Assembly (NCBI GenBank): GCA_964398815.1 | Contig: CAYNNZ010000005.1 | Span: 5,739-69,738, forward strand | Length of the DNA stretch: 64,000 nt | Reading direction: 5' to 3' | Origin: an uncultured Candidatus Saccharibacteria bacterium | Lineage (GTDB): Bacteria > Patescibacteriota > Minisyncoccia > Phycocordibacterales > Phycocordibacteraceae | Shown: positions 1-32,934 of the stretch, one piece after another | Numbering within the stretch: the first letter of the stretch is position 1 | How the letters are laid out: every line of letters begins with the position of its first letter | Program-made: the position numbers and the translations under genes | The notes under the pieces: model-generated | Databases searched by the model: none | Told to the model about the DNA's origin: nothing | What the model saw: only the letters and a program-made list of their open reading frames with translations

Positions 1-723
1 ACGCGGTATCGAGCTCTTCATCACGGACCATATTAAGGACGGCGACGGGAACACGAGTCGCGGCATGAGTTTCGCCTGCATCACGACGGGGATGTGAATC
101 GCCAGGTGCAAGAACGCACCGAGCACAACGCCGATGCCAATGCCGGGCAGTCCAAACAGCGGATAGAGCACGATGGTACCGAAGATGATGCCGACGTTAT
201 AGAGGACCGGCGAAAGCGCAAAGAGTGCGAAGCGCCTGTGTATCTGCGTCACGCTTGTCAGGATTCCCGAGAGTCCGAGCAAGATGGGCTGAATGAGCAG
301 TATGCGCGCGAGGAACACGAACTCACCCGCGTGCGGAGAGCCCACGAATGTCGGGAACAGGAGGAAGAGGAATGAGGGCGCGATGAGCGCAAGCAGGAGA
401 CAGATGACGCCGCCGCCCACCAAAAGGAAGGACGCCGAATGCGACAGCAGTCGGCGTGCCTCCTCTGGGTCTGCTTTCGCAATACGCGGAATGATGACAT
501 AGGCGGACACAAGCGAAGCGACCAGCGCGAACACCACGTCTGGCACCTTAAATGCCGCGTAGTAGAGATCGAGCACCTCCCCTGCCCCGAAGTTATGCGC
601 GAACAAACGATCGCGCGCCAGAGCCAGTATTTGCGACGCCAGTGTTAGGGCAGCAAGCAAGTACGCGGCCTGGTGTAGGCCGCGTACCGGGGATACTAAC
701 GTTTTCAGTATCCTGCTTACCAT
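1..723 (-). CDS. murJ: Lipid II flippase MurJ/MviN, N-terminal part; gene continues beyond window start
   Basis: Manual minus-strand translation from ATG (revcomp of cat at 721-723): MVSRILKTLVSPVRGLHQAAYLLAALTLASQILALARDRLFAHNFGAGEVLDLYYAAFKVPD... followed by hydrophobic polytopic sequence. This matches the MurJ N-terminal signature. It is open-ended so absent from the ORF track. A GGGAG RBS-like motif lies just upstream. Confidence 0.6.
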   Translation of the reverse strand, partial: MVSRILKTLVSPVRGLHQAAYLLAALTLASQILALARDRLFAHNFGAGEVLDLYYAAFKVPDVVFALVASLVSAYVIIPRIAKADPEEARRLLSHSASFLLVGGGVICLLLALIAPSFLFLLFPTFVGSPHAGEFVFLARILLIQPILLGLSGILTSVTQIHRRFALFALSPVLYNVGIIFGTIVLYPLFGLPGIGIGVVLGAFLHLAIHIPVVMQAKLMPRLVFPSPSLIWSVMKSSIPR

Positions 724-740
724 TACTCCCTAGAGTACCA

Positions 741-3209
741 CTATTTCGCTGTCGTGGTTGCTGCGGGAGCTGGGGTAGTTGTTTGCTTGCTTGCGCTTGG
801 AGCTGGCTCCTGAACCGGCGACTGCGGGATGCCGAGTGCGCCGAGACGGGATGCCGGGAACGGATTCTTGCCTGCCTGGAGGCTTGCGATATCCGTTGCT
901 ACTGCCTTTGCGTTGTCCTCCGAGAAGGCTGCCACGGTGTTGAGTTCCGTAAGTGCCTTATCGAGCTGACCCTTCGTTGCGTACATGACGCCGAGGAAGA
1001 AGTGCGCATTCGCGTACTGTGGATTCACCTGAACAGCCTTACCGAGAGCCTCGATAGCGCCGTCAGTGTTTCCATTTGCCGAGCGGAGAATACCCACCTG
1101 GAAGAGCACGGTCGGGTCGTTCGGAGCGAAGTAGGCGGCTGCTTCAGCTGCCTGAAGTGCCTCCTTCGCCTTCCCTTCCTGAGCCTGGAGCTGCGAGAGG
1201 AGGAAGATAGCCTGCGTGTAATCGCGCTTGAGCGTGATTGCCTTCACGAGGTTTTCCTCTGCTGCTGCAGCATTACCCTTCGCGATTTCGAGCTGCGCGA
1301 GGATGAACGGAATGGTCGGATTAGTCGGCGAGAGTGTTTCTGCCTGAGTGAACGATGCCTTTGCGTTTTCGTAGGCGCCGTCAATGTTAAGCGGAACCAC
1401 AGTCTCGTAGACGTTTCCAATCATCACCCAGTTCTGGTAGTTCTTCGGCCACAGACGCGTAGCCGTCGTACCTGCCTGAATACCGCCCGTGAGCGCTGCC
1501 TGGAACTGCTGCTGCGCATCAGCCGGGGTGAGCGTCGTATCAGCGACAATCTGGCGCATGCGGGCGATGCCGATGGCAGATGCGAGCTGATAGGCGCGCT
1601 CGGTCGGTGCGAACAGGATAGAACGGTTCACTGCAGTCGTTGCTCCCGGAAGGTCACCCTTTGCGTAGGCGACGGTAGCGGTTGCGTAGGACACATCACC
1701 GACATAACGCTTCACGACCACATAGGCTGCCACGACGGAAGCCAGAAGGAGGAGCGTGAGGCCGAATACGATGACGAATCCGATGCGCGGACTCCTAGCG
1801 AAGATGACGCCATACTCGCGGCGCTCGCGGCCGTAGCGGAGCGAGGACACGAATATACCGAGCATAAGGAATCCGATCATGAGCACCACCGGTCCCGGTA
1901 CCGTGAGCACGGACATGATGAATACGTAGAGTGCACCCGTGAAGGATGCGAGCGATACGTATCGCATGAACGAATCAGACGGGGTGCGGAACAGGAGGGC
2001 GCGAACGCCGAAGAACAAGAAGAGCCCCAGGAACGCGAGCCATGCGAGCACGCCTACGACGCCGGTCGTCACGAAGGACGTCGGGATGTAGCCGATTCCG
2101 GACGTGAAGTCCACGTTCCAGAAGATGGTGTCGTTAAGCGAGCGGTCGCGGAACTTGAGCCACTGATTGCCGAACGTACCCGGGCCTGAGCCGAATATCG
2201 GCGAGGCAGCATAGGTATGACTTCCCACATCGAAGGTGGACTGCCACGACGGACGAACGTCGATGACGGACGCATTGAATGCCGTCACGAGCGCGTTGCC
2301 GATGGTAGAACCGCCGATAAGGAAGAAGAGCGCGATGATGAGCGTTGCGAACGGAACACCGAGTCCTGACGAATCAGCCTCAGGCGCTTCCATGTCGCGC
2401 TCGCCCGAAACCATCGCTACTCCTTCGAAGTCGCTGTCCTCTGCGGTCGGACGCTTCTTCATGATTGCCTCGATGAAGAGCGCGAGCGCGACAAGCGCGA
2501 CCATGCCCCACACGAGCGGCGAATTCACGAGCGCGAGCACCACTAGTGCGAGACCCCCACCCACATAGAGCGCGATGCGAGCCCGTCCAGTGATGGACAG
2601 GAAGCGCAGCGCGAGAAGCGCGAGCGTCACCCCAAGACCCAAGAGGATGCCGAGGTCGCCGAACGTACCGACGAGGTTCACCGTCGGGGTCACCAGCGAC
2701 GGCGCTATCTTGCCGACGATGATGAACCCAATCTGCGCAACCACGATGAGGCCGAGCAGCATCGCTCCCCACTTGAAGAAGGAGCGGTAGTGCGGACCAC
2801 GGCGGAACGCGAGCGCAGTCAAGGTCGCGAGTGCTGCCATCAAGACGACGAATCCGAGCGTGTCGGATTCAAGGTCCGTGCCGAAGAATGCCTGCCCGAA
2901 ACTCATTCCGGAGAACAAGGATGAGAGCAGGTATGCAAGCGGCAATATCCAGAGCGCGCCGAGAAGCGGAAGCGGCGGAACGATGACGTTGCCGCGGCGC
3001 AGGCGCGCGAGGATGAACAGCACGAGCGCAACCAAACCGCCAATAGCGAAGATGGAAATCTTCGTATAGATGAACGGTATTGTCTGCGAGGGAATAAAGG
3101 CGACTGTTCCCAGTGCGCCAGCGGCGATAAGAGCCCAAATCGCCGCAGTATCGAACGAGAAGCGCCGTGGGTTAGGCGCTGCCGCCGATACAGTTTCTGT
3201 ATCTGACAT
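741..3209 (-). CDS. Polytopic membrane protein of the O-antigen ligase/Wzy-like family with C-terminal TPR repeats
   Basis: 822 aa ORF. Roughly 12 TM segments in the N-terminal 450 aa. The C-terminal 250 aa has repeated TPR-like helices (AYENAKASFTQA..., AHFFLGVMYATKGQLDKALTELN). This architecture is common in CPR genomes. It lies directly upstream of murJ. Confidence 0.55.
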   Translation of the reverse strand: MSDTETVSAAAPNPRRFSFDTAAIWALIAAGALGTVAFIPSQTIPFIYTKISIFAIGGLVALVLFILARLRRGNVIVPPLPLLGALWILPLAYLLSSLFSGMSFGQAFFGTDLESDTLGFVVLMAALATLTALAFRRGPHYRSFFKWGAMLLGLIVVAQIGFIIVGKIAPSLVTPTVNLVGTFGDLGILLGLGVTLALLALRFLSITGRARIALYVGGGLALVVLALVNSPLVWGMVALVALALFIEAIMKKRPTAEDSDFEGVAMVSGERDMEAPEADSSGLGVPFATLIIALFFLIGGSTIGNALVTAFNASVIDVRPSWQSTFDVGSHTYAASPIFGSGPGTFGNQWLKFRDRSLNDTIFWNVDFTSGIGYIPTSFVTTGVVGVLAWLAFLGLFLFFGVRALLFRTPSDSFMRYVSLASFTGALYVFIMSVLTVPGPVVLMIGFLMLGIFVSSLRYGRERREYGVIFARSPRIGFVIVFGLTLLLLASVVAAYVVVKRYVGDVSYATATVAYAKGDLPGATTAVNRSILFAPTERAYQLASAIGIARMRQIVADTTLTPADAQQQFQAALTGGIQAGTTATRLWPKNYQNWVMIGNVYETVVPLNIDGAYENAKASFTQAETLSPTNPTIPFILAQLEIAKGNAAAAEENLVKAITLKRDYTQAIFLLSQLQAQEGKAKEALQAAEAAAYFAPNDPTVLFQVGILRSANGNTDGAIEALGKAVQVNPQYANAHFFLGVMYATKGQLDKALTELNTVAAFSEDNAKAVATDIASLQAGKNPFPASRLGALGIPQSPVQEPAPSASKQTTTPAPAATTTAK

Positions 3210-3325
3210 ATTGTTTGTTATTACTCCGTAATCACGGGATTAACCCAAAGCACATTAATAACTGCCTCTTTAGTATACGGGGCCGTTCGTGTTGCAAGCG
3301 GCTCGCGGTGGGGACAGTAAATGGC

Positions 3326-3352
3326 AAAAACCCGCCGAAAAGGCGGGTTTTT
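3326..3352. terminator. Symmetric hairpin aaaaacccgcc-gaaa-aggcgggttttt; bidirectional intrinsic terminator immediately 3' of rnpB
   Basis: Perfect GC-rich stem flanked by A-run and T-run, seen in sequence. Confidence 0.6.
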
Positions 3353-3362
3353 GCATGTATAT

Positions 3363-3716
3363 GGATACCGGTTCGATAAGCCGAATTCTGTCGGGCGTAC
3401 GCCCGGACGATCATCTATCTGGGCCGCATGTTGCCATGCGGCTCGAGCGGCGCTCCCTTCCCCGAGGGGATGGGCACGGCCTTGCACTGAGGTAAGGATT
3501 TAGCCGTTTCACCCCCCTAGTCACCTAGGGGATTAATCAGACGAGCTTTTCAGCTCAGCTGACCTTCCTTGCTTTCGCTCGGAACGTCACTGTTCGCACC
3601 TCGCATTTTTCAATGGGCGGGCGTTACCCGCTACCCTGCTGCAGCCCAAAGACTGCCAGTGTTCGGACTTTCCTCCCGGAGCAAAAGCCCCGAGCGATCG
3701 TCTGAACCGGTCCGTG
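3363..3716 (-). ncRNA. rnpB: RNase P RNA (bacterial type A), about 354 nt
   Basis: Minus strand carries the P4 5' strand GGAGGAAAGUCCGAAC (revcomp of 3663-3678) and the 3' conserved ACAGAAUUCGGCUUAUCG (revcomp of 3376-3393). The P1 helix pairs 5' GGACCGGUUC (3713-3704) with 3' GAACCGGU (3375-3368). TATAAT (revcomp of 3720-3725) lies about 7 nt upstream of the predicted 5' end. The terminator hairpin 3326-3352 follows. No protein-coding signal. Confidence 0.7.
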
Positions 3717-3746
3717 TGGATTATACCACAGGTCTAAATAATGTCG

Positions 3747-4244
3747 CTAGTTACCGTACGGAGGCGGTAACGCAATCTTCGAGTCCACTTCGAGCCCATG
3801 ATCGCGGGCGTATCCGGCCCGAGTCTCGAGTACGTACTTCACCGGAGTCGGAGGATAAAAGACATGGGGGTAGGTGCCCGGGTCGACCCCGTGATCGATG
3901 AGGATAACCGTTCCATTGTCCGATAGCCAAATGATGTCGATAGGCGCAAGCATGTCCTTCATCCAGAATCCGTATCGGTCAGCCTTCGGGAAGACGAACA
4001 GCATGCCGTAGTTATCTTCTATCGTTGGTCGCTTTCCGAGACCTAGTTCCTGTTTGGCAGGCGTATCAGCAATTTCATACCTGAATGCAGCGTACGTACC
4101 CACCGCCGGCATGGTCGTGTCCTTTACGGACGTTCTATAGGACACATACCAGTACCCTGCTGCCATCAGCACGAGCGCAAGGACGAGCACTGCTATGCCG
4201 ATGCGCAGATAGCCAGTTCGTTTCATTTCTCTATGATACCGCAC
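3747..4244 (-). CDS. DUF192 (COG1430) family protein with N-terminal signal/anchor
   Basis: 165 aa with an N-terminal TM. The core GLGKRPTIEDNYGMLFVF...YGFWMKDMLAPIDIIWLSDNGTVI matches the DUF192 pattern. The alternative start MKRTGYL at 4226 is plausible. Confidence 0.65.
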   Translation of the reverse strand: MRYHREMKRTGYLRIGIAVLVLALVLMAAGYWYVSYRTSVKDTTMPAVGTYAAFRYEIADTPAKQELGLGKRPTIEDNYGMLFVFPKADRYGFWMKDMLAPIDIIWLSDNGTVILIDHGVDPGTYPHVFYPPTPVKYVLETRAGYARDHGLEVDSKIALPPPYGN

Positions 4245-4294
4245 GAGCCGGACCCTTTTGGGTCCGGCTCGTGGTGTGCTGCGCTTGCGTGTGA

Positions 4295-6364
4295 TTACGG
4301 AAGCATCGGATTATCGAATGCCATGTCGGGGCACGCAATGCGATTTATCTTCACCTGGGTCGTCTTGTACACATACCCTGTCGGGGTGTGGTCAGTCGGG
4401 AGACCGTACGGCACCCAAGGTGCGAGCACGTCAGACCAATACTTCACCTGGAACGCGTTCACCCAGTTGGTAGTCAGGTTGTCGAAGACACCAGACACGC
4501 TCAGGTTGGCGCTCATTTCCCCATTAAGGAAGGATTGCAGCACGGAGACCTGATTGCTGTCGTTGACCTGACCCTCGCGCATCCAGCTCGTGATGAGCGG
4601 GCAGGAGGCACCGAGGACTTCCCCGTCGCCACCAATACCGAAGTTGTCGTTATTGGTGCCGCTGTTAGAGGAAGAGCTGTGCGAGTGACCGCCTCCGCCC
4701 CCTCCTCCGTTACCCCCACTGTTGCCTCCGGAATTTACCGTAGGTTCAAAGTCGAAGATGGTGGTGGTTGCGAACCCAGTAGTCGAGCCGACATGCTGCG
4801 TCGAGCTTGCGACCGTGAGAAGCAGGTTATCGATGTAGGCATTTGCAGTCGCGCTCGTTGTTGCATTCTTGATGCCGATACCCAAGAGTGGATCTGCAAG
4901 TGATACACGGCTATTCGGGAATGCAGTCATGAGCGAACTCCAGCTGCGGAATTGTGCCATGTTCAGGTCTGGCCACTGCGAAGGCGTGGAGGTAGACGTC
5001 GTGGCGTATCCACTCCAAGTCCACTTTCCAGAACCGAGGAGATTCCAGTTCTGCCATGTGCTGCTTGCGACGGTGCCATTTTGTTCCGGCATGTAGACCA
5101 GCTGTCCGGTGCCTGTTGCGTTCCCTTGTAGGTCAACGTTGAAGGCGAAGAACGGCGCGGTCGTAGATGCAGTAGTGCTTGCTCCCGAGTCCTCATAGGA
5201 CGAGAACGAGAGCGCGGTGATATCAGCAAGACGGGTGCCGCCGAACTGGTAGGTCGCAATGCTGTGGCTCATGGTGTCGGTTGCCGTAAGCAGAACCGAT
5301 CCAGAACCAAGCAGTGCAGTGCCCGGACCATTCACGAATGAGCCTGCGGAGTTACTGTCGATTGCTCCGGTTGCTCCATTCCAGAAAAACCATTTCGAGG
5401 AGGACATCGCATCACCCTGCGAAGTCGCAAGGTCGCCTTGGCGAACGACTATCGTGTGACTGGTCGAGGTAGCCTGCGTGGTCGTACCAGTACCACCGCC
5501 TCCGGTGTTACCGCCGCCAGTCCCAGTGCCACACGTGGCGCCCATGACGGTAAGTCGGAAGAGAAGACCTGCAGGGTTTGAGTTTGCAGTTTCTCCTGGG
5601 CGAGGAGCATTGCTGACGGTTACTTCCATGGTGTTCGTTCCGTTATGGAGGTAGCCCGTCACATCGTAATGATGAGAGGAAGTGAAGTTGTCCTCGATGA
5701 ATGACCGGTCATCAACTGTCATGCCATTCACTTTGAGGATGTAGCCGTTGTCGGCTGCGATATCGAGCGAGCCGCTGGTGCTGGTACCGGTAACACTGAA
5801 GTCTTTGGTAAAAACCTCCGTAGTGCCGGTTGCCGCATCGGCGTCCGTAAGAGTCTCGCCCCATATCCAGGTGGAGCTTGCGATGCTGGTCCATGCCGGG
5901 TTAATCGGCATGACTGCAATCGAGCCATGGCCGCCCTGCATAGTGGTAGCGTCAGAGACGAATACACATTGCTGTGGTGTTCCGTTTCCGCCGCCATTGT
6001 TCCCGCCACCATTATTTCCACCGCCGGTATTCCCGCCCGTAGGACAGGTTGAGGTAGCGGTATTGGTAGGAGTGGTCGAGCCAGTTCCTGTCGGGAGAGT
6101 CGGGTCAGTCGGACAGGTCGGGTCGGTTGGGTTCGTTACTCCCCCGCCAGGAGCAGTCGGGTTCGTGGGGTCCGTAGGATTGGTCGGGTCCGTCGGCATG
6201 GTCGGTGCCGTTATGGAGAAATTCGAACCGAAGCCGAATTGGGTTGTCTGTGCCACGGCAGCCGCAGGTATGGCTGACGCGATGAGCGCGACCGAGAGAA
6301 GCGCAGACTGCGCCGCGCTCAGGAGCACGAGCGTTCGCCTGCGCGATACGAGTTTCTTTGTCAT
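4295..6364 (-). CDS. Large secreted low-complexity surface protein (signal peptide, Pro-Thr and Gly/Asn-rich linkers, beta-rich C-terminal domains)
   Basis: 689 aa. N-terminus MTKKLVSRRRTLVLLSAAQSALLSVALIASAIPAAAVA is a signal peptide. PTDPTNPTDPTNPT repeats and GGGNNGGGNNGGGNG runs. No recognisable catalytic motif. Confidence 0.5.
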   Translation of the reverse strand: MTKKLVSRRRTLVLLSAAQSALLSVALIASAIPAAAVAQTTQFGFGSNFSITAPTMPTDPTNPTDPTNPTAPGGGVTNPTDPTCPTDPTLPTGTGSTTPTNTATSTCPTGGNTGGGNNGGGNNGGGNGTPQQCVFVSDATTMQGGHGSIAVMPINPAWTSIASSTWIWGETLTDADAATGTTEVFTKDFSVTGTSTSGSLDIAADNGYILKVNGMTVDDRSFIEDNFTSSHHYDVTGYLHNGTNTMEVTVSNAPRPGETANSNPAGLLFRLTVMGATCGTGTGGGNTGGGGTGTTTQATSTSHTIVVRQGDLATSQGDAMSSSKWFFWNGATGAIDSNSAGSFVNGPGTALLGSGSVLLTATDTMSHSIATYQFGGTRLADITALSFSSYEDSGASTTASTTAPFFAFNVDLQGNATGTGQLVYMPEQNGTVASSTWQNWNLLGSGKWTWSGYATTSTSTPSQWPDLNMAQFRSWSSLMTAFPNSRVSLADPLLGIGIKNATTSATANAYIDNLLLTVASSTQHVGSTTGFATTTIFDFEPTVNSGGNSGGNGGGGGGGHSHSSSSNSGTNNDNFGIGGDGEVLGASCPLITSWMREGQVNDSNQVSVLQSFLNGEMSANLSVSGVFDNLTTNWVNAFQVKYWSDVLAPWVPYGLPTDHTPTGYVYKTTQVKINRIACPDMAFDNPMLP
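5970..6200 (-). repeat. Coding low-complexity repeat (PTDPTNPT units and GGGNN units) inside the 4295-6364 gene
   Basis: Seen in translation (aa ~55-130) and as ccnac/ggnaa periodicity in DNA. Confidence 0.5.
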
Positions 6365-6520
6365 GGTGGATAAAAATTAAGCGAATCTGCGGTAGGACCC
6401 GTCACAGAGAGAGAACCCTTACGAGCGGGAGGACTACCTAGACCCTCTGAATAACACCGCAGCCGTGAGAAATAGATGAAGTATTCATGGTGAAAAGTCG
6501 CCTGTGGTACGGTAGAGGCA

Positions 6521-7318
6521 ATGCAGCATTTTCTGGCATGGCTTATGGCGCTCACGACATCCCTCACTGGAGCGAGCCATTTCGCATTCGCCCCGCATGC
6601 AACGAGCACTCCCCCGCTTCCGGTCGACACCAGTGGTGCGCCGGTCCGTATACCGATTTTCATTTACCACACCATCACGAATGAAAAGGTAACCGCGAGT
6701 TCCTACGGCTCATTCAGCAACACACCGGAACTCCTCGACGAGCACCTTACCTATTTAGATGAGCACGGGTACACCACTGTCACCATGAAGGAGGTCGCAG
6801 ACATGCTGCGTCGCGGAACCACGTCACCGATTGCAAAGCCGGTCGCACTCACGTTCGACGACGGCTGGGTAACGCAGTACAAAAACGCGCTCCCGATACT
6901 CGAGAAACATCATGTTAAAGCAACGTTCTACATATTCCCGAATCCAGTCAGCAAGGACGACCGGTTCATGACGTGGGAGCAGCTCGCGGAGTTGCGGGAC
7001 AAGGGATATGAAATCGCCTCGCACTCCTATACGCATCCGCTGCTGTCGAAGCAGACGCCTGAGATGCTTCATCACGAACTTAACGACAGCAAGAAACTGC
7101 TCGAGGAAAAGCTCGGTGTCACCGTGACTGATTTCGCGTCCCCGTTCGGATACACGAGTCCTGCGGTCGTCGCTGAACTGAAAGCAGATGGATACGAGAC
7201 CGGCCGCACGACCAATCAGGGATTCACACATGCAACCGGGACTGAGTACGCGCTCGATGCCTACCTCGTGCATCAGGGCATCAAGGATTTCACCTGGGCA
7301 CTTGAGTACGGGAAATAA
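6521..7318 (+). CDS. Secreted polysaccharide deacetylase (NodB homology/CE4 family)
   Basis: 265 aa with a signal peptide. Motifs ALTFDDGWVTQY, HHVKATFYIF and SHSYTHP are typical CE4 deacetylase motifs (Asp-Asp, His-His). Confidence 0.75.
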   Translation: MQHFLAWLMALTTSLTGASHFAFAPHATSTPPLPVDTSGAPVRIPIFIYHTITNEKVTASSYGSFSNTPELLDEHLTYLDEHGYTTVTMKEVADMLRRGTTSPIAKPVALTFDDGWVTQYKNALPILEKHHVKATFYIFPNPVSKDDRFMTWEQLAELRDKGYEIASHSYTHPLLSKQTPEMLHHELNDSKKLLEEKLGVTVTDFASPFGYTSPAVVAELKADGYETGRTTNQGFTHATGTEYALDAYLVHQGIKDFTWALEYGK

Positions 7319-7578
7319 TCACTACGTGAGGGTTTACGGGGATATCGTGTGGAGAACCATGGTTCTCCACACCTACCTATCTACCTGAAGAGTTCATATA
7401 ATTGGGTTGGACCAAAGCAAAAGAGCGCCCCCAACGAAATTTAAGAGCGCTCTCAAGCTCACGAGTCCCGACAGCAAGGGCACTATTCGGCGCACCTGAA
7501 CTGCCGGCGCAGGGTTTGCCTGCTTCTTCTAGCATACATTCTCTCGCGCACTTAAATTGCGCCGCTGTGAATATCATT

Positions 7579-7974
7579 ATGCCTAACAAACTAAAGCATC
7601 TTGAGTTCATTCAGGCAGTAGTCACCCGAATGAGTTCAAATGGGTTTCTCCTAAAAGGATGGAGTGTCACCCTTACAATCGCATTATTCGCGCTCTGCGA
7701 TAAGACATCGAACTCAACATTAGTCCTCGTAGGACTCATGCCCATTCTTATGTTCTGGGTTCTCGATGCATTCTTTCTTTGTCGTGAGCACGCATACCGC
7801 AGACTTTACGACGAAGTCCGGAAACGGAGTGAGGATGATATCGACTTCTCTATGGCCATAAGCGACCTATGCGAGGGTGACTTCTGTTGGCTGAAGAACA
7901 TATTTTCCCCAACGGAGGTGGCGTTTTATCTCGGTCTGGTGGCAGTCACATTACTCGGAACATCCCTGCTGTAA
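7579..7974 (+). CDS. Small multi-TM membrane protein (131 aa; 2-3 predicted helices) encoded 6 nt upstream of the TIR-like gene; candidate effector/partner
   Basis: ATG at 7579. MPNKLKHLEFIQAVVTRMSSNGFLLKGWSVTLTIALFAL... followed by hydrophobic segments LVLVGLMPILMFWVLDAFFL and VAFYLGLVAVTLLGTSLL. Clearly more AT-rich than the flanks. The upstream in-frame extension to 7402 was judged non-coding. Confidence 0.5.
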   Translation: MPNKLKHLEFIQAVVTRMSSNGFLLKGWSVTLTIALFALCDKTSNSTLVLVGLMPILMFWVLDAFFLCREHAYRRLYDEVRKRSEDDIDFSMAISDLCEGDFCWLKNIFSPTEVAFYLGLVAVTLLGTSLL

Positions 7975-7980
7975 TTCCCT

Positions 7981-8658
7981 ATGTCAAAGAAGATATTCGT
8001 GAGTTACAAGTATGCAGATGCTGCAGTGCGTCCACTCCCAGGAGTATATGCAACAACTGCACGAAACTATGTCGATGAATTGGAAGTACATCTCGAGGAG
8101 AATGACCATATATACAAGGGTGAGCCCAGCGACGGAGATCTGAGTAACTTCAAAGACGACACAATCGCATCGTCACTTCGAGACCGTATTCACGACAGTA
8201 CCGTAACAGTTGTGTTGGTCTCTAAGAACATGAAGGAAAGCTACCTCCTCGAATCTGATCAATGGATTCCATGGGAAATTGCATACTCGCTACGTGAACA
8301 GACGCGAAATGGGCGCACGAGCGGTTCAAATGCAATTGTTGCCGTAGGTATCCCAGACGAAAATGGGAGTTACGCGCACTTCATTCTCGAAAACACCTGC
8401 GTACAGTGTGGTAGTCGAACCGTCATGACTAATTTGTTCTTCGGAATCCTTCGAAGAAACATGTTCAATCGACGTCTTCCTAAGCACAGCAACTGTAGCG
8501 CTCACTCGGTGCTAAATCCGGTTCATGAAGGTGATGACCACTCCTACATTTACCCAGTAAAGTGGGACGACTTCATCACAGATATGGATCGACATCTGGG
8601 TATCGCGCTCGACATGAATTCTCGTATTCATGAGTACGACATCTCGAAGACGCCATAG
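7981..8658 (+). CDS. TIR-like domain protein of the ThsB/DUF1863 (MTH538-type) kind
   Basis: 225 aa. N-terminus MSKKIFVSYKYAD (classic TIR/ThsB start). Core DSTVTVVLVSKNMKESYLLESDQWIPWEIAYSL...NAIVAVGIPDENGSY resembles the ThsB beta-strand/WxxE region; the Glu in WEI is a candidate catalytic Glu. C-terminal YPVKWDDF. AT-rich composition. Identified by eye, no HMM run. Confidence 0.6.
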   Translation: MSKKIFVSYKYADAAVRPLPGVYATTARNYVDELEVHLEENDHIYKGEPSDGDLSNFKDDTIASSLRDRIHDSTVTVVLVSKNMKESYLLESDQWIPWEIAYSLREQTRNGRTSGSNAIVAVGIPDENGSYAHFILENTCVQCGSRTVMTNLFFGILRRNMFNRRLPKHSNCSAHSVLNPVHEGDDHSYIYPVKWDDFITDMDRHLGIALDMNSRIHEYDISKTP

Positions 8659-8674
8659 ACCCTTCAGTTAAACA

Positions 8675-8714
8675 AAAGCACAAACCCGCATTAGCCAGTG
8701 CGGGTTTGTGCTTT
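8675..8714. terminator. 16-bp perfect inverted repeat hairpin (aaagcacaaacccgca / tgcgggtttgtgcttt, loop ttagccag); terminates the TIR gene (+) and tRNA-Ser (-)
   Basis: Seen in sequence. On the minus strand it is followed by a TTGTTT run 14 nt after the tRNA 3' end. Confidence 0.65.
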
Positions 8715-8727
8715 GCTAAGGAAAGTG

Positions 8728-8812
8728 CGGAAGCGGAGAGATTCGAACTCTCGATACCTTGCGGTATGCCGCCTTTCCAAGGCGGTGCACTAGACCACTA
8801 TGCGACGCTTCC
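8728..8812 (-). tRNA. tRNA-Ser (anticodon GGA), class II with long variable arm, 85 nt, no encoded CCA
   Basis: Hand-folded: acceptor GGAAGCG/CGCUUCC, D-stem GCAU/GUGC with GG in the loop, anticodon stem CCGCC/GGCGG, loop UUGGAAA (U33, anticodon GGA, A37), variable arm AUACC-GCAA-GGUAU, T-arm GAGAG-UUCGAAU-CUCUC, discriminator G. Confidence 0.85.
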
Positions 8813-8839
8813 GTTCGTGTTTTATAGCACAGAACCGGA

Positions 8840-9733
8840 TTATTTTCCGTCCGGATGCAAGAGCTGCTGGATGCGGTCGGCGGTCGGCGGATGAGTCGAG
8901 AATAGACTGTTCAGCCAATCGGTTTTCCGCTCGCCGAACGGGTCATCTATGAAAAGATGTGCAGTCGCGTGGCTTACTTTCCTCATCGGTGCGTTATGTA
9001 CATCAAGCTTCGCAAGGGCAGAGGCAAGTCCTTCCGGATAGCGGGTCAGAAGTGCACCCGAGGCATCTGCCAGATACTCCCGGCGGCGCGATATGGCGAG
9101 TTGAATCAGCTGCGCCGCGATAGGCGCGAGGATAATACCGACAATCGCGAGAATCATGAGGAGTCCCCCACCCCTATCGTTATCGCGATTGCCGCCAAAT
9201 GCGGACATGCGCAGGAATATGTCCGCAATTATTGCGAGGAATCCGGCAAGTACGACTGCCACTGTCATAAGCAGGATGTCGCGGTTCTTAATGTGTGAAA
9301 GTTCGTGCGCAATCACACCCTCGAGCTCCGCACGATTCATGATGGCGAGCAATCCGGTAGTCGCGGCGACCACCGCATGTTTCTCATCGCGCCCAGTTGC
9401 AAACGCATTCGGTGCAGGGTCTTCAATGACATACAGCTTCGGCGTCGGCATGCCCGCAGTAATCGCGAGATTTTCTGTGACCGTATAGAAATCAAAGAAT
9501 TCCTCGCGCGATGCCGGGCGCGCGTTCGTCATCGCGAGCACCTGCTTATCAGAGAACCAATAGCTATAGAAGTTCATCCCGACCGCAAACGCGATGGCGA
9601 CATACAGAATACCCGGACTGTCGTAGTACCAGGCGACGGCATAGCCTACCCCGACGACAAACGCGAGGAACACCGCCATCAGAAAGGCAGTGCGCCACAC
9701 ATTACTTGAACGTTCTTGGTAGAGGGTTGCCAT
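8840..9733 (-). CDS. htpX: Membrane zinc metalloprotease HtpX (M48 family)
   Basis: 297 aa. N-terminal TM helices, HELSHIKNRD (HExxH) and a downstream E motif. Typical HtpX topology. Confidence 0.8.
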   Translation of the reverse strand: MATLYQERSSNVWRTAFLMAVFLAFVVGVGYAVAWYYDSPGILYVAIAFAVGMNFYSYWFSDKQVLAMTNARPASREEFFDFYTVTENLAITAGMPTPKLYVIEDPAPNAFATGRDEKHAVVAATTGLLAIMNRAELEGVIAHELSHIKNRDILLMTVAVVLAGFLAIIADIFLRMSAFGGNRDNDRGGGLLMILAIVGIILAPIAAQLIQLAISRRREYLADASGALLTRYPEGLASALAKLDVHNAPMRKVSHATAHLFIDDPFGERKTDWLNSLFSTHPPTADRIQQLLHPDGK

Positions 9734-9736
9734 AGG

Positions 9737-10102
9737 TTATGAATTTCTTTTTTCGTTCGTTTTATACCCGTCGTCAGATGACCATACTAGGAAGACGCGC
9801 TTCTCGAACCCTCCTTTCTTGGCGAGCGCTGCTTCCTGAGCAGCCTGAACTTCGTCATCCGTAATACCGAACACTTTCTTCACTTCATGCAGCACATCTA
9901 CGAGGTCAGCGAGCTCTTTCGTAAGGTCCTCCTTTGACGTAAGGCCAGGAAATGCTGTGGCCTCTTCCTCCACTTTCTTCAGGAGCTCGCGTTCGTATTC
10001 TGCTGGCTCGAGCGTACGAACCTCGCACTGCGACCCCTTCGCACGAATCACGTCCGGGATGTTATCTCGAACGAGTTTGTTGTAGTAGACCTTACCCGGC
10101 AT
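9737..10102 (-). CDS. MazG-like all-alpha NTP pyrophosphohydrolase (PRA-PH-like)
   Basis: Start at MPGKVYYNKLVRDNIPDVIRAKG... (the 9737-10279 ORF is an N-terminally over-extended frame). Overlaps the upstream paralog-like gene by 11 nt. Confidence 0.5.
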   Translation of the reverse strand: MPGKVYYNKLVRDNIPDVIRAKGSQCEVRTLEPAEYERELLKKVEEEATAFPGLTSKEDLTKELADLVDVLHEVKKVFGITDDEVQAAQEAALAKKGGFEKRVFLVWSSDDGYKTNEKRNS

Positions 10103-10412
10103 CCTTTTTCTCGAATCGGTCCTTGTCGCGACCGTAACACTTGTCCATCTTCTTTGCGAACTCTGCATCGAGGTCCACGTTATGAGCGTTAGCGAGACAC
10201 ATTGCAGAGAATATGACGTCGAGAATTTCGCCGCCAAGCTCCTGCGCAGCCTCTTCAGGCTTTTTGGGCTTCCCGCCATACATATGGTTAAGGAGTCGAG
10301 CGACTTCCCCTACCTCTTCGCTCATTGCAGCCATTTGCGAGAGCGGCGGCCAATAGGGCACCTTGTATTGCTGTACCCAATCGTCTATCTGCTTTTGGGC
10401 GTCAGAGAGCAT
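10092..10412 (-). CDS. MazG-family nucleotide pyrophosphohydrolase (small single-domain)
   Basis: 106 aa. QKQIDDWVQQYKVPYWPPLSQMAAMSEEVGEVARLLNHMYGGK...EELGGEILDVIFSAMCLANAHNVDL matches the MazG EExxE/metal-binding helix pattern. Confidence 0.6.
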   Translation of the reverse strand: MLSDAQKQIDDWVQQYKVPYWPPLSQMAAMSEEVGEVARLLNHMYGGKPKKPEEAAQELGGEILDVIFSAMCLANAHNVDLDAEFAKKMDKCYGRDKDRFEKKDAG

Positions 10413-21883: not shown

Positions 21884-22353
21884 TCAGCGTATCCGTTTGC
21901 ACGCAGGAATGCTTCGCCTAGTTCCGAAAATGTTTCACCTCTCTCTATTGCGCGTAGCGCATGCTCGACATGCGGCGTCATATTCGAAGGCAGGTCATCC
22001 ATACGCGACCAGCGAAGATCGTCGCACTTATGCGGTTCCAGATTCTTTACCTCGCCCGACCATTCGCTTATTTCGAAAAAATAATCGACTCGATCTCCGG
22101 TTTCGTCATGCTTCGGGCGGAAAAGAGTATGGACGAAACGCGCCTTCGTGGACTCAATCGCGATTCCGATTTCTTCCGCGACTTCTCGTACAAGCGCTTC
22201 GGTCGGTAACTCCCCCGCATCAATATGCCCGGCTGGTACAGCGTAATTGCCGTCTTGGTATCCAGTATTGAACCTTCTCGCCAGTAATACTTCTCCTTGG
22301 TTCCTGAGTACGAGATAGACTGCTGTCGTGGCAGGATTGCGGGAGTTCTTCAT
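21880..22353 (-). CDS. NUDIX hydrolase
   Basis: 157 aa. Nudix box GHIDAGELPTEALVREVAEEIG. 4-nt overlap with the downstream gene. Confidence 0.7.
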   Translation of the reverse strand: MKNSRNPATTAVYLVLRNQGEVLLARRFNTGYQDGNYAVPAGHIDAGELPTEALVREVAEEIGIAIESTKARFVHTLFRPKHDETGDRVDYFFEISEWSGEVKNLEPHKCDDLRWSRMDDLPSNMTPHVEHALRAIERGETFSELGEAFLRANGYAE

Positions 22354-22359
22354 GCGAAC

Positions 22360-22635
22360 CTATGCTTCAGGCGAGACCGGCTCTGGTGTCGGTTCCGGTG
22401 CGGGAGCGGGCGGTGGTGCCTGGGTTGAAGTGGATGGCGTAATGAGTGGTGACTCCGGAATTATTGCCCACGCGATTATGTAAATAAGAATGCCCGGACC
22501 GAGTCCGGTCGCGAACGTGAGGAGGATGAAAATAAGGCGGACGAGGACCGGGTCTACAGAGAGGTGCTCGGCGATTCCGCCGCAGACGCCGGCGATGACG
22601 CGGTTCGTCTGGCTACGATGAAGGGTCTTTTGCAT
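22360..22635 (-). CDS. PspC-domain small membrane protein
   Basis: Start MQKTLHRSQTNRVIAGVCGGIAEHLSVDPVLVRLIFILLTF (PspC signature), one TM, Pro/Ala-rich tail. The track ORF is over-extended upstream. Confidence 0.6.
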   Translation of the reverse strand: MQKTLHRSQTNRVIAGVCGGIAEHLSVDPVLVRLIFILLTFATGLGPGILIYIIAWAIIPESPLITPSTSTQAPPPAPAPEPTPEPVSPEA

Positions 22636-22660
22636 GGGCCCAGTATACCAAAATCGGCCA

Positions 22661-23074
22661 TTAGGCCGATTCGACGTACTTCTTGAAGTTATCAAGTGTG
22701 GCCTGCCAGCCTCCTGCCTGCATCTCGCGCGAGTTCTCGTGCTCAGGCTCGAATCGCACGACGACATGCGTTCCCTCCTCCACGTTTTCAAGAGAAACAC
22801 TTACCTTGCGACCATCTTCAAGAACGAACATCTCGTATTCCGGCTCAACGACTTCATCGTAGATGCCCTTGAGGTTGAAACCCATACTTCCGTCCTTCGC
22901 CTCCATACGATAGTCGAACGTCCCGCCAGTTATCACATCATTCTTGGCCTCAGTGGTGTGCCAATCATCGGATGCAGCATTCCATTCCTTAATGGCCTCT
23001 GGGTCGTGATACATTTCCCAGACCTTGTCGCGGTCTGCTTCTATCGTTGCTTCTACGGTGATTGGGTTGGTCAT
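22661..23074 (-). CDS. SRPBCC-superfamily protein (AHSA1/activator-of-Hsp90-ATPase-like, polyketide-cyclase fold)
   Basis: 137 aa. VEATIEADRDKVWEMYHDPEAIKEWN... typical of the AHSA1 family. Confidence 0.55.
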   Translation of the reverse strand: MTNPITVEATIEADRDKVWEMYHDPEAIKEWNAASDDWHTTEAKNDVITGGTFDYRMEAKDGSMGFNLKGIYDEVVEPEYEMFVLEDGRKVSVSLENVEEGTHVVVRFEPEHENSREMQAGGWQATLDNFKKYVESA

Positions 23075-23086
23075 AACTTCATTCTA

Positions 23087-23428
23087 CTACTCCTGGAGTC
23101 CCTTGCTTCGTAAACAATTTTTATAGTTAAGGTCTATATCGTCAGTCGTCAACACAGTCTTGAAGCAGGCACTTCTTTCTGCCCTATCCTTATCCGTGAG
23201 CAGCATTGGCACAGCCGTTACAAGAATTTGAACTATACCAACAAAAACAAGTGCAAATGTAAGCCAAAACATTGAAGTGGCATTTCGATTTGAGGAAATA
23301 TCTGCTTTGGATGCACTTCTATTGAGACCAGATAACTCTCGAGTTGCTCGACCTATTTCTGTACTTAAATGCATAATTTGTGCCCCCACACCCTTTATCT
23401 CTTCTAGAAGTTTGAATTCTGTAAGCAT
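23087..23428 (-). CDS. Small single-TM protein, hypothetical; downstream partner of the TM-HEPN gene
   Basis: 113 aa. Soluble N-terminal 50 aa, TM FWLTFALVFVGIVQILVTAVPMLL, C-terminal 40 aa. AT-rich. 10-nt gap from the upstream gene. Confidence 0.4.
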   Translation of the reverse strand: MLTEFKLLEEIKGVGAQIMHLSTEIGRATRELSGLNRSASKADISSNRNATSMFWLTFALVFVGIVQILVTAVPMLLTDKDRAERSACFKTVLTTDDIDLNYKNCLRSKGLQE

Positions 23429-23438
23429 ACAACTAGTA

Positions 23439-24293
23439 CTAGTGGCGTGGTGTCTGTAAGCGAAGAATTATAGGTTTGACAACTTTCTGTAGATTAATAA
23501 ATGTTTCATCACTAATCTGTGCTTCGTCAGTTTTGTGTGCAATCAAATTTCTGATTCCTCTTAAGTCCTCCACGGCCGCCCTTTCTTCGGGTCTTATGAG
23601 CCCCTTATCAGACGCAATTCGTATAAGTTGGTACTCTGGCAAATATGCTGTTTGTGTTCCAATTTCCAGAATAAGATACGATTTTACAGCAGAAATTAGG
23701 GCCTGATACATGCTCAGCAATGAAATACGCAAGTCGCCACTACTATAAGACTCTTCTGTACGCGACTCAGACCTACGACTTAAGTCACGCAAATCCTCGG
23801 CAATTGCGTTTCTTTCCTTTTTGTAGAATTTTGTCGAAACAAGCGCACTCAGTAAGGAGGTGGCTGCCCCTATCAATACTCCAATGGATGTCGACAGAGC
23901 GGCTAGATGTTCATATGAATAACCTGAGAACATATTCAAAATGAACGAGACGCAGAAAAGGATTGCCACGAGTAATGGAAATGCGAGTGCGGTTATATAA
24001 ACTGTAAGTGCCAAGACCTCCAAGTACTGAGTCCAGCTTGTTTCGAGTAAGAATGGAATGGAGTAACGAATGTTATTAAGTCCATATAGATAAGCCGATA
24101 ACAGGAGTAGAGCTAGAAATATTAACCCGGCAACATATAAGGTGACCGGAAAGCCAAATACAGGTATCGAGAATGCACCCCAACTGTCTTTAAAAGGCGC
24201 AAAGGCAAGCAAGGCTGCAGAAAGCCCAACGATGTAGGACGCTCTTTCGAGGGTTGAGTGACCATTTGGTAATTGTGCGGGCGAACTACTCAT
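23439..24293 (-). CDS. 4-TM membrane protein with C-terminal HepT/DUF86-like HEPN domain (putative membrane-anchored RNase toxin)
   Basis: 284 aa. Four hydrophobic helices in the first 155 aa. C-terminal LIRIASDKGLIRPEERAAVEDLRGIRNLIAHKTDEAQISDETFINLQK fits the HepT/HEPN Rx4-6H motif and surrounding pattern (GFRNxxVHEY...I.DE). AT-rich relative to flanks. Confidence 0.5.
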   Translation of the reverse strand: MSSSPAQLPNGHSTLERASYIVGLSAALLAFAPFKDSWGAFSIPVFGFPVTLYVAGLIFLALLLLSAYLYGLNNIRYSIPFLLETSWTQYLEVLALTVYITALAFPLLVAILFCVSFILNMFSGYSYEHLAALSTSIGVLIGAATSLLSALVSTKFYKKERNAIAEDLRDLSRRSESRTEESYSSGDLRISLLSMYQALISAVKSYLILEIGTQTAYLPEYQLIRIASDKGLIRPEERAAVEDLRGIRNLIAHKTDEAQISDETFINLQKVVKPIILRLQTPRH

Positions 24294-31446: not shown

Positions 31447-31896
31447 TTACATCGTTCCTCCCATTGGAGGGTTCTGTGGAGGATTCGATGGGGGCATTGA
31501 AGGAGCGGATGGCATAGATGCAGCCATCGGCTTTGCACCGCCCTTCCCGACGAATCCAGCGACCAGAAGCACGACGCCGAGTACGACATGGAGGAGGTGG
31601 TCCGCCATGTTGGTCTCGACGATGCCGAGGAGGCTTCCGCCGTTCGGCACCATCACGAAGCCGAGTACCGCAATCAAGAGGTATACGACACCGAGAATCT
31701 TAAGCCAGAGTGCGGACTGGCTCGGCATGCGGAGTGCGCAGCCGACGAGGATGATACCGAACACGAGGTGCACGAGGTTGTGCGCGAGGTTCGTATCGAA
31801 CAGCGCACCCATGCCGACAAGCGGATTCGGGACGAATCCGAGTACGCCGACGAGGATGAAGACGATACCGAACACCAGAGCAAGCGTTTTAGCCAT
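31447..31896 (-). CDS. DUF4383-family membrane protein
   Basis: 149 aa. VGVLGFVPNPLVGMGALFDTNLAHNLVHLVFG and repeated LLGIVETNMADHLLHVVLG match the DUF4383 pattern. Pro/Met/Ser-rich tail. Confidence 0.55.
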   Translation of the reverse strand: MAKTLALVFGIVFILVGVLGFVPNPLVGMGALFDTNLAHNLVHLVFGIILVGCALRMPSQSALWLKILGVVYLLIAVLGFVMVPNGGSLLGIVETNMADHLLHVVLGVVLLVAGFVGKGGAKPMAASMPSAPSMPPSNPPQNPPMGGTM

Positions 31897-32030
31897 ACAG
31901 GTAGGTTGGTTTTAAGAGACCGGAGTGGTCTTACTAGATAAGTATAGCGAGGTTATAGACATTCCCCGTCCCCAACAGGGGCTGTGTGGATAGCGCTAAA
32001 AGTGCTCATACGGTTGGAACCTTTTAAAGT

Positions 32031-32186
32031 TCAATCCAGCCAACTGATATCGCCGCATGAATAACGGCAAAATGGGAACACCAAATGACCTGTAGCGAAA
32101 TAGGCCGCGATTTCTAAAGTGATATAGACGAAAACTATAAGTGCGATCCAGAAGATTTCTTCTTTGGTCAGTTTTCGTTTCTTCAT
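32031..32186 (-). CDS. Small TM protein (51 aa from MKKRKL), hypothetical, AT-rich islet
   Basis: ORF-track frame 32031-32282; internal start chosen. Confidence 0.25.
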   Translation of the reverse strand: MKKRKLTKEEIFWIALIVFVYITLEIAAYFATGHLVFPFCRYSCGDISWLD

Positions 32187-32241
32187 AAGAAAATTATGAT
32201 AAAAAACACCGGCTGGGAGTTTGGTACGACGTGGGAAAGTT

Positions 32242-32583
32242 CTAATCGGCATCTGAGCATTTTTCCCTTGTCCACGCATCACCTATTTCCTTTCGATAAG
32301 CGTGCCAACCCAACGGCAAATCCATTACTTCACTTAACGAGCTGTCGCGTTCCAATAAGTGTCCAATATGAATTATGGACGCATCCTTATCGTTCGGGGT
32401 CGTGAACGGCAGGAATTGCCAATCTCCGTCTTGGTCATGGCTAACATGCAGCACTGGTTCATCACCTCGTGCAATTTGTTTTGTTGTAAACACACCAAGA
32501 TTTTGTTCCATATCCTCTGCAGTTAGACTCCCTGCGAAATCATGAACACGAAAGCGACAACAATAAATACCAAGAAGACCCAT
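32242..32583 (-). CDS. Small soluble protein with HVSHDQDGDWQF motif (resembles DUF2185/immunity-protein-like family; recalled by eye, not verified)
   Basis: 113 aa (or 89 aa from MEQNLG at 32511). AT-rich. Confidence 0.3.
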   Translation of the reverse strand: MGLLGIYCCRFRVHDFAGSLTAEDMEQNLGVFTTKQIARGDEPVLHVSHDQDGDWQFLPFTTPNDKDASIIHIGHLLERDSSLSEVMDLPLGWHAYRKEIGDAWTREKCSDAD

Positions 32584-32930: not shown

Positions 32931-32934
32931 AGAT

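Follow-up and report, generated by a model that had tools for sequence, protein, structure and literature searches.

Two co-oriented plus-strand genes, separated by only 6 nt in the open reading frame list of the window (the whole 64,000-nucleotide stretch of DNA that was analysed), very probably form a type V Thoeris antiphage system, in which a signal made by a TIR-domain protein, ThsB, would act on a small membrane effector, ThsF, and result in abortive infection. Type V Thoeris, consisting of ThsB and ThsF ("DUF2270"), was described by Yirmiya et al. (Dec 2025, bioRxiv 10.64898/2025.12.03.692087) and validated with systems from B. thuringiensis DAR 81934 and Bacillus sp. 1NLA3E. Our own basis for assigning the window's pair to this type is homology, gene architecture, accessory status, and the conservation both of the pairing and of catalytic and basic residues. 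The original prediction of a compact TIR-based antiphage module is borne out by homology to the validated system, while its suggestion that the pair could be an undescribed minimal variant has to be dropped, as type V is published and validated and has been present as the PADLOC candidate PDC-M50 since 2023. Nor is the system type new: experiments on homologues have already validated both the signal and the effector class. The features of the locus are as follows.

4295..8726, no strand: variable cargo of ~4.4 kb, holding a 689-aa repeat protein (minus strand), a polysaccharide deacetylase (plus strand), thsF and thsB
7319..7578, plus strand: intergenic region upstream of thsF (260 nt), the presumed promoter region of thsF-thsB, holding a minus-strand terminator-like hairpin at 7421-7454
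7579..7974, plus strand: thsF, 131 aa, ATG start; putative three-helix membrane effector of type V Thoeris; PADLOC PDC-M50A; preprint label "DUF2270"
7981..8658, plus strand: thsB, 225 aa, starting MSKKIFVSYKYAD; predicted TIR-domain signal synthase with a C-terminal extension, of the B. dafuensis TIR1 subfamily
8675..8714, no strand: perfect 16-bp hairpin between the thsB stop and the tRNA-Ser 3' end, a likely bidirectional terminator
8727..8812, minus strand: tRNA-Ser(GGA), from ARAGORN (Rfam, 56.8 bits); backbone landmark outside the system

Both reading frames, the gap between them, the hairpin and the 3' end of tRNA-Ser(GGA), which faces the gene pair, were all found where the original prediction had placed them. 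A minus-strand backbone had been described as flanking the pair, and this needs one correction: the neighbouring deacetylase gene lies on the plus strand and belongs to the variable region. A longer, TTG-initiated reading frame for thsF is possible from 7402; position 7579 was taken as the start because the homologues begin in every case at the M..KLKHLEF position. In the source genome's own annotation, thsF is shortened to 78 aa.

The 131-aa protein is, as judged by homology, the ThsF of type V Thoeris. BLASTP aligned residues 3-127 of 131 to the validated B. thuringiensis DAR 81934 ThsF (L081, positions 4773-5198) with 43% identity (E=5e-38), and the validated protein in turn scored 172 bits (E=2e-55) on an HMM of the window's ThsF family. 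Residues 1-126 also matched positions 1-127 of the 134 in the PADLOC profile PDC-M50A (PDLC04686; E=4e-45), and a further match was obtained to phrog_19896 (E=1e-34). The description of a small multi-TM partner was upheld by three hydrophobic segments (23-39, 44-69 and 112-131) and by an AF2 monomer model that is all-helical (pLDDT 89), with helices at 2-43, 47-82 and 111-130. Conserved residues in the family are K6, H7, R17, K26, W28, W60, D63, E70 and R74, as well as R81, and the basic and histidine residues among them (K6, H7, R17, K26, R74 and R81) are compatible with a putative ring-shaped homo-oligomer carrying basic pockets between protomers.

The effector's published label was not reproduced with Pfam, as hmmscan gave no match to PF10028 (DUF2270) for the window's ThsF, and the best PF10028 score among the members of its family (E=0.0014) lies far under the 25-bit gathering score. 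No precomputed Pfam hit exists for the validated B. thuringiensis ThsF either, so the PF10028 label is unusable as a membership criterion, and the "DUF2270" label for the type V effector reflects a more sensitive, cluster-level annotation. A deep profile search yielded no bridge to bona fide PF10028 members among the best 150 of 5710 matches, all 150 of which were close relatives. No SLATT family came up among the Pfam matches at E<=1 of ThsF or of 33 homologues, and ThsF gave no Macro hit. A SLOG-ThsF fusion exists (P0260; PF18163, 57.7 bits), which fits ThsF as an effector module controlled by a nucleotide signal. Long ThsF-containing proteins were considered as TIR-ThsF fusions, and this was rejected because they are SLOG-ThsF and 8xMP-ThsF fusions.

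The 225-aa partner had been read as a ThsB-type TIR protein, and this identification was confirmed with Pfam (PF08937 ThsB_TIR, 34.5 bits versus a gathering score of 21.2) and with a full-length match to the PADLOC ThsB model PDLC00428 (E=1.4e-74). End to end, the protein shares 53% identity (E=1.3e-75) with TIR1 of the Bacillus dafuensis Thoeris system (PDB 9vyl). The candidate catalytic glutamate proposed in the WIPWEI motif, E99, is invariant in 121 of 121 homologues, among which C140, C143 and C172 are also conserved, clustering in the C-terminal extension. In Table S1 of the preprint, cluster 2742576382, to which the window's TIR protein belongs, appears under "DUF2270 - Type V". This cluster differs from those of both validated type V ThsBs, and its sole representative tested, from P. 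macerans and of type IX, gave no defence (Yirmiya et al.).

Pairing of ThsF with TIR proteins extends well beyond the window. Among 80 genome loci with a ThsF homologue, 67 carry a same-strand TIR gene within 300 nt, located downstream in 54, upstream in 28 and on both sides in 15, and PF08937 accounts for 48 of 63 downstream neighbours. These counts come from Pfam searches of the neighbours combined with an iterated HMM; a narrow TIR HMM had placed a nearby TIR at 16 of the 80 loci, an artefactually low figure because that model is subfamily-specific. The TIR partners are drawn from many unrelated subfamilies, and a locus often has two of them, a pattern to be expected if interchangeable sensors feed one shared effector. 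In Photobacterium profundum, the TIR protein beside the ThsF homologue is verbatim the Table S1 entry 2501732538 ("DUF2270 - Type V"), and the ThsF homologue is its sole co-directional neighbour. The window's own ThsB subfamily was also found directly downstream of ThsF in Paceibacterota, in Uhrbacteria and on another contig. The pair has a patchy distribution over phyla, plasmids and phage-like elements; 115 plasmids carry homologues, as do phage-like elements, and RM and Gabija-like genes adjoin some homologues.

The pair is acquired accessory cargo, on the basis of its absence from 80 syntenic relatives, its low GC and GC3, and its homologues on plasmids and in phage-like elements. A GroEL-LemA-HtpX-tRNA-Ser backbone is common to these 80 relatives, with tRNA-Ser adjoining HtpX in most of them; 0 of the 80 carry the thsF-thsB pair, and the deacetylase, ThsF and ThsB are absent from every one of the relatives examined. 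In 18 relatives, the gap between tRNA-Ser and the DUF192 gene measures 118-2529 nt and has unrelated genes inside. Accordingly, the islet is larger than predicted, ~4.4 kb rather than 1.5 kb: everything from the tRNA 3' end to the DUF192 gene is variable cargo, the deacetylase and the 689-aa repeat protein included. The relatives derive from 0.1-um groundwater filtrates. The slot was also considered as a defence hotspot in relatives and rejected as such, its cargo there being miscellaneous (metal hydrolase, GNAT, RDD, histidine phosphatase and riboflavin synthase-like genes). The hallmarks of a tRNA-integrated mobile element, an integrase or recombinase with a direct repeat of the tRNA 3' end, were lacking, in agreement with the original prediction: a search allowing up to 3 mismatches found no second copy of the 24-nt tRNA 3' end, positions 3600-9000 contained no relevant direct repeats, and no integrase-like open reading frame was found in the interval.

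Composition agrees with the described AT-richness of the pair, whose GC is 0.468 versus 0.557 for the window (z = -2.4), a value as low as this occurring in 3.9% of windows of equal size, and whose GC3 is 0.50-0.53 versus 0.62-0.71 in the flanking genes. Downstream of thsB, perfect 16-bp arms (8675-8690 and 8699-8714) enclose an 8-nt loop, and the resulting hairpin has a folding energy of -33.4 kcal/mol (z = -7.5 versus shuffles); the values for its two strands are -33.4 and -32.2 kcal/mol, and UUUUGUUU follows it on the minus strand. It is a likely bidirectional terminator and was absent from the calls of the terminator scan. Upstream of thsF, the hairpin at 7421-7454 has 14 pairs and a T-rich tail 3' on the minus strand (-28.7 kcal/mol, z = -4.5), and a promoter scan covering one promoter type found no sigma-70 consensus in 7319-7578.

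By analogy with characterised homologues, we infer which signal the window's locus uses, how its ThsF oligomerises, that membranes are disrupted and that the system is active in its host. ThsB would remain inactive until a cue from phage infection is received, with sensing probably taking place through the non-TIR C-terminal extension. Once triggered, it would convert NAD+ to a cyclic ADP-ribose isomer, most likely 3'cADPR (1''-3' gcADPR), as suggested by B. dafuensis TIR1 and by the validated type V systems. Binding of this signal would then shift ThsF, with its three membrane helices and predicted ring assembly with basic pockets between protomers, into a membrane-breaching state, and the infected cell would be killed or arrested before release of phage progeny. 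[quoted passage not shown]

The same ThsB-ThsF logic could operate with another messenger, namely a different cADPR isomer or an ADPR conjugate, or ThsF could need a second infection-derived input, which we consider a real, though clearly minor, possibility. In the Bacillus sp. 1NLA3E system, 3'cADPR was produced, yet it did not become toxic to system-bearing cells (Yirmiya et al.), from which it follows that signal or activation needs may differ between ThsF variants. The preprint authors themselves consider that a second signal or some other molecule may be involved, and the window's ThsB, whose TIR cluster is not that of either validated type V ThsB, points the same way. Both validated ThsBs nevertheless make 3'cADPR on infection (Yirmiya et al.), and B. 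dafuensis TIR1, the closest characterised homologue of the window's protein over its full length, makes the isomer that activates ThsA. Reversed roles were the other of two mechanisms in the original prediction, with the TIR protein as an NAD+-depleting NADase effector and the small membrane protein as sensor or antitoxin, to which a role as anchor can be added. Many bacterial TIRs are NADase effectors, the preprint warns of such cases for unverified types, and the catalytic glutamate fits NADase activity equally well. Type V is, however, a verified type, in which TIR-only cells gather 3'cADPR without host killing, the exogenous signal is toxic only when the system is present, and the 3'cADPR sponge Tad1 abolishes defence. 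Together with the role of this ThsB subfamily as a signal generator for ThsA in B. dafuensis, and with the pairing of ThsF with so many unrelated TIR subfamilies, this makes reversed roles highly improbable, while the first mechanism offered, a TM effector triggered by a TIR-made signal, is supported through homology to the validated system.

It is also very unlikely that the pair is an inactive passenger, horizontally acquired and either unexpressed or non-functional in its host. Foreign composition, the lack of a sigma-70-like promoter in the scan and the mis-called 78-aa thsF of the source annotation would fit such a passenger, but that scan was limited to one promoter type, and both reading frames are intact and, judged by their family profiles, of full length, keeping the invariant residues except at G22, where Ser is usual. 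Moreover, at least 8 independent metagenome assemblies contain the identical pair, in every case linked to the same flank, which argues for maintenance; 5 of 5 contigs with the identical deacetylase carry the pair, with no presence/absence polymorphism among them. Practically no weight can be given to a conserved housekeeping membrane/TIR pair of the lineage with no role in defence. Conservation of this kind among relatives had been named in advance as one finding that would speak against the module, and nothing favours it other than the flanking housekeeping genes for HtpX and GroEL; it is effectively refuted by the 0 of 80 relatives that share the backbone and carry the pair, and is opposed by the patchy spread over phyla, plasmids and phage-like elements and by the RM and Gabija-like neighbours of homologues.

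As a type V Thoeris system, the locus would be a clean natural example of effector swapping, since one ThsB subfamily serves the NADase effector ThsA in Bacillus dafuensis and is found with the small membrane effector ThsF in the window. It also offers an instance of type V Thoeris carried as strain-specific cargo, in a variable slot next to tRNA-Ser, by a lineage that isolate-based surveys cover poorly. For annotation, the value lies in a ThsF that is missed by Pfam and NCBIfam and truncated in the source genome, and the pair is a candidate for probing the signal specificity of ThsB cluster 2742576382 in a type V setting. An ultra-small, probably CPR/Patescibacteria-type host is suggested by the filtrate origin of the relatives and by the same ThsB-ThsF pair in Paceibacterota and Uhrbacteria. 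That Thoeris signalling works in such a bacterium, and does so with a ThsB that senses phage through metal-binding Cys140/Cys143/Cys172 or that sends ThsF a signal other than 3'cADPR, is a combined proposal we regard as unlikely; if true, it would extend type V Thoeris beyond its characterised range.

Several known systems resemble the window's pair in part. Rst_2TM_1TM_TIR, from P2/P4 hotspots, likewise combines a TIR protein with small TM proteins, but has three genes instead of two, and at the window's locus PADLOC gave only the PDC-M50A and ThsB models. PDC-M50 (PADLOC-DB v2.0.0, 2023) pairs a small TM protein with a TIR protein, and the window's ThsF fits PDC-M50A over its full length, whereas its TIR protein fits the generic ThsB model far better than PDC-M50B (PDLC04688), to which it has a weak match (E=0.0092) in the N-terminal half only; PDC-M50 is a candidate with no mechanism attached to it. 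Type II Thoeris (TM-Macro, with a His-ADPR signal) and the SLATT effectors of type VII Thoeris and CBASS share the principle of a TIR-made signal acting on a membrane-spanning effector, while ThsF, matching neither Macro nor SLATT, belongs to another effector family and probably answers to another signal. With type I Thoeris (ThsA SIR2-SLOG and ThsB), as in the ThsA-TIR1-TIR2 locus of B. dafuensis FJAT-25496, the pair shares the ThsB subfamily and presumably the same sensing and signal chemistry, but the effector here is a membrane protein and not an NADase; in contrast to the B. dafuensis locus, no ThsA (SIR2/SLOG) was found at the window's locus, where the neighbours are the deacetylase, tRNA-Ser and HtpX. 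The closest likeness in architecture is to type V Thoeris itself, a two-gene operon of a ThsB TIR protein and a ~130-140-aa effector with three TM helices. Gene order is thsF-thsB in the window and thsB-thsF in B. thuringiensis, the former being the commoner arrangement in the ThsF loci sampled; the window's ThsB is B. dafuensis TIR1-like with a Cys-containing C-terminal extension, while the validated ones fall in other clusters; and its host is an uncultured lineage, whereas the validated hosts are Bacillus.

The thsF and thsB genes lie on the plus strand 6 nt apart, and these genes, a hairpin and the 3' end of tRNA-Ser were all found where the original prediction had placed them:

7579-7974, plus strand: thsF, ORF of 131 aa
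7981-8658, plus strand: thsB, ORF of 225 aa, beginning MSKKIFVSYKYAD
8675-8690 and 8699-8714: perfect 16-bp inverted repeat with an 8-nt loop, between the thsB stop and tRNA-Ser
8727-8812, minus strand: tRNA-Ser(gga), with its 3' end toward the thsF-thsB pair

The inverted repeat folds at -33.4 kcal/mol (z = -7.5). The low GC attributed to the gene pair was borne out by windowed GC, with a value of 0.468 in thsF-thsB versus 0.557 window-wide (z = -2.4; GC falls this low in 3.9% of windows of the same size) and a GC3 of 0.50-0.53 versus 0.62-0.71 in the genes alongside. A further minus-strand hairpin of 14 pairs, followed by UUUUGCUUUGGU, lies in the intergenic stretch ahead of thsF (7421-7454; -28.7 kcal/mol, z = -4.5). 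No minus-strand gene ends at this point, and the hairpin may be what is left of the tRNA-Ser/htpX terminator after the thsF-thsB insertion moved it, or may act as a barrier to antisense transcription.

The prediction that the 225-aa protein is a ThsB-type TIR protein held in Pfam and PADLOC, as it scores above the threshold for PF08937 ThsB_TIR (34.5 bits versus 21.2) and is covered end to end by PADLOC ThsB model PDLC00428 (E=1.4e-74). Among solved structures the nearest is PDB 9vyl, matched over residues 1-223 (E=1.3e-75) and titled "Putative cyclic ADP-D-ribose synthase TIR1". Its chain is identical to P0192, a protein of Bacillus (Cytobacillus) dafuensis whose gene belongs to a type I Thoeris locus of classic layout, ThsA(SIR2+STALD)-TIR1-TIR2, where both TIRs, when triggered by phage, make a ThsA-activating cADPR isomer (Ofir et al., 2021 preprint, 10.1101/2021.01.06.425286). 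The catalytic glutamate E99 (WIPWE) is the same in all 121 aligned members of the subfamily, and the non-TIR C-terminal extension conserves C140 (90%), C143 (98%) and C172 (100%), with H175 at 57%. The cysteine trio, also found in B. dafuensis TIR1, may form a putative metal-binding site (residues 140-175) in the presumed phage-sensing part of the protein.

Thoeris types V-XI were defined in December 2025 (Yirmiya et al., bioRxiv 10.64898/2025.12.03.692087), with type V consisting of ThsB and ThsF, the latter having three transmembrane helices and the label DUF2270. In that work AlphaFold3 predicts ThsF to assemble as a homo-heptameric ring, with pockets of positive charge between neighbouring protomers. 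The ThsB of B. thuringiensis DAR 81934 makes 3'cADPR upon infection, added 3'cADPR is toxic to cells bearing that system while 2'cADPR and cADPR are not, and the Tad1 sponge eliminates its defence (10.64898/2025.12.03.692087). Three lines of evidence tie the window pair to this type. Table S1 of the same preprint lists the window's TIR subfamily as cluster 2742576382, with motif DQWIPWEISYSLRE..RNGRTS, under "DUF2270 - Type V". At a Photobacterium profundum locus (L072), the TIR whose sole co-directional neighbour is a ThsF homologue is verbatim Table S1 entry 2501732538, also "DUF2270 - Type V". Finally, the validated B. thuringiensis locus, retrieved via its ThsB sequence (P0391, 100% identity), encodes a 141-aa ThsF 13 nt downstream of ThsB, to which residues 3-127 of the window ThsF are 43% identical (E=5e-38) and which scores 172 bits on an HMM of the window's ThsF family. 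The original prediction was right to see a TIR-based defence module whose effector is a membrane protein, but the pair is not the undescribed minimal variant suggested; it is a further member of type V Thoeris, already present as PADLOC candidate PDC-M50. As the PF10028 (DUF2270) model gave no significant match to the window ThsF or its relatives, and no precomputed match on the validated ThsF, the name "DUF2270" reflects remote similarity at cluster level and is of no practical use as a criterion. The source contig's public annotation starts thsF internally and gives it (P0001) only 78 aa; since ThsF is also recognised by no Pfam or NCBIfam model, standard annotation easily overlooks type V Thoeris.

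Pairing with TIR proteins is widespread among 80 genome loci with a ThsF homologue. Of the 63 closely spaced genes that follow the ThsF homologue, 48 encode PF08937 ThsB TIRs, and TIRs also occur among upstream neighbours; with an iterated TIR profile, a same-strand TIR gene was found within 300 nt in 67/80 loci (54 downstream, 28 upstream, 15 on both sides). These TIRs fall in several unrelated subfamilies, as expected for one effector with interchangeable sensor/signal-generators, as in Thoeris. The window's own ThsB subfamily lies directly downstream of ThsF in three contigs: one of Candidatus Paceibacterota, with a type I RM system alongside, one of Candidatus Uhrbacteria, with an MmeI-like RM enzyme alongside, and one other. 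The upstream genes of all three score 154-196 bits as ThsF. Gabija-like OLD/UvrD genes adjoin the validated B. thuringiensis system, and ThsF homologues are carried by 115 plasmids, of which 69 are conjugative, and by three phage-like Vibrio elements of 14 kb.

The GroEL-LemA-(MazG)-HtpX-tRNA-Ser(GGA) backbone is kept in 80 metagenomic relatives (HtpX identity 62-99%), several from 0.1-um groundwater filtrates, and comparison of these syntenic loci found ThsF, ThsB and the deacetylase in none of them. In the 18 relatives with enough flank, the DUF192-TPR-MurJ genes (window 1-4310) follow tRNA-Ser after 118-2529 nt (median ~1 kb) versus ~4.4 kb in the window, which defines a variable slot at 4295-8726 that includes a 689-aa repeat protein and the deacetylase. 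The GC of these two neighbours is like that of the backbone and that of the Thoeris pair is clearly lower, which suggests that the pair was acquired separately and more recently. As the original prediction had also reported, neither an integrase nor a second copy of the tRNA 3' end was found at the slot. Unrelated accessory genes fill it in relatives, ruling out a dedicated defence hotspot, and thsF-thsB is present in 5/5 contigs bearing an identical deacetylase.

The repeat protein (4295-6364, minus strand) has an N-terminus resembling a signal peptide, contains low-complexity repeats (PTDPTNPT and GGN) and matches no Pfam family; a length-polymorphic 548-aa variant occurs in metagenome contig L084, and a few relatives have distant homologues on the downstream side of HtpX. 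Among short-read metagenome contigs (loci L083-L096), all eight with identical ThsB stop 43-122 nt past the thsB stop, and all six with identical HtpX stop 2-137 nt past the htpX stop, so assemblies of several samples break in or at the edge of tRNA-Ser (window 8700-8812) from both sides. This suggests an assembly graph branch point, with the tRNA common to co-occurring relatives or the slot carrying alternative alleles. Just outside the slot, in conserved backbone between the TPR and DUF192 genes, lies a bacterial class A RNase P RNA (3361-3713, minus strand; 128 bits). Two small minus-strand genes share 9737-10412: one encodes a 106-aa MazG-type NTP pyrophosphohydrolase (PF03819), and the other, an ORF called at 121 aa in public contigs, lies directly upstream of htpX and has its start overlapped by the first; the two are kept in only some relatives, with MazG in loci L117, L126 and L145. 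Two more low-GC patches (22350-23800 and 31500-33000; minimum GC 0.41) may be other acquired segments, encoding small proteins (PspC, AHSA1/SRPBCC, NUDIX, DUF4383 and several without a Pfam match) with no defence-related Pfam family.

We consider it highly likely that thsF-thsB acts in abortive infection as a type V Thoeris module. ThsB would sense phage, probably through its C-terminal extension, and then make 3'cADPR from NAD+, as the validated type V systems and B. dafuensis TIR1 suggest by analogy. Basic pockets in the ThsF oligomer would then take up this signal, as in the published AlphaFold3 model, with which the conserved ThsF residues R17, K26 and R74 are compatible, and activated ThsF would breach the membrane and so kill or arrest the cell. 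A toxic effect is established for a ThsF homologue, and membrane breach is a proposed step for homologues as well. That the window ThsB makes 3'cADPR specifically is somewhat favoured by analogy; another signal, or the need for a second input, would fit within this same type V model and is unlikely. It is quite improbable that the pair is an inactive passenger, and more improbable still that the TIR is itself an NADase effector. We see next to no chance that these genes, found in none of the backbone-sharing relatives, are a housekeeping pair.

The locus is useful for annotation of type V Thoeris and is evidence of this system in poorly sampled, probably ultra-small bacteria. Fused ThsF family members of 350-380 aa carry the ThsF module C-terminally, in P0260 behind an N-terminal SLOG cluster-2 domain (PF18163, 57.7 bits), likewise SLOG-ThsF in P0249, and in P0302 with an 8xMP octameric membrane protein domain (PF24838, 96 bits); SLOG genes also adjoin ThsF in two genome loci. 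The SLOG fusion is consistent with ThsF as a membrane effector module under nucleotide-derived ligand control, and both fusions may be further Thoeris-like effector architectures. The locus also exemplifies effector swapping within one ThsB subfamily, which serves ThsA in the type I Thoeris system of B. dafuensis, whereas elsewhere it adjoins ThsF.
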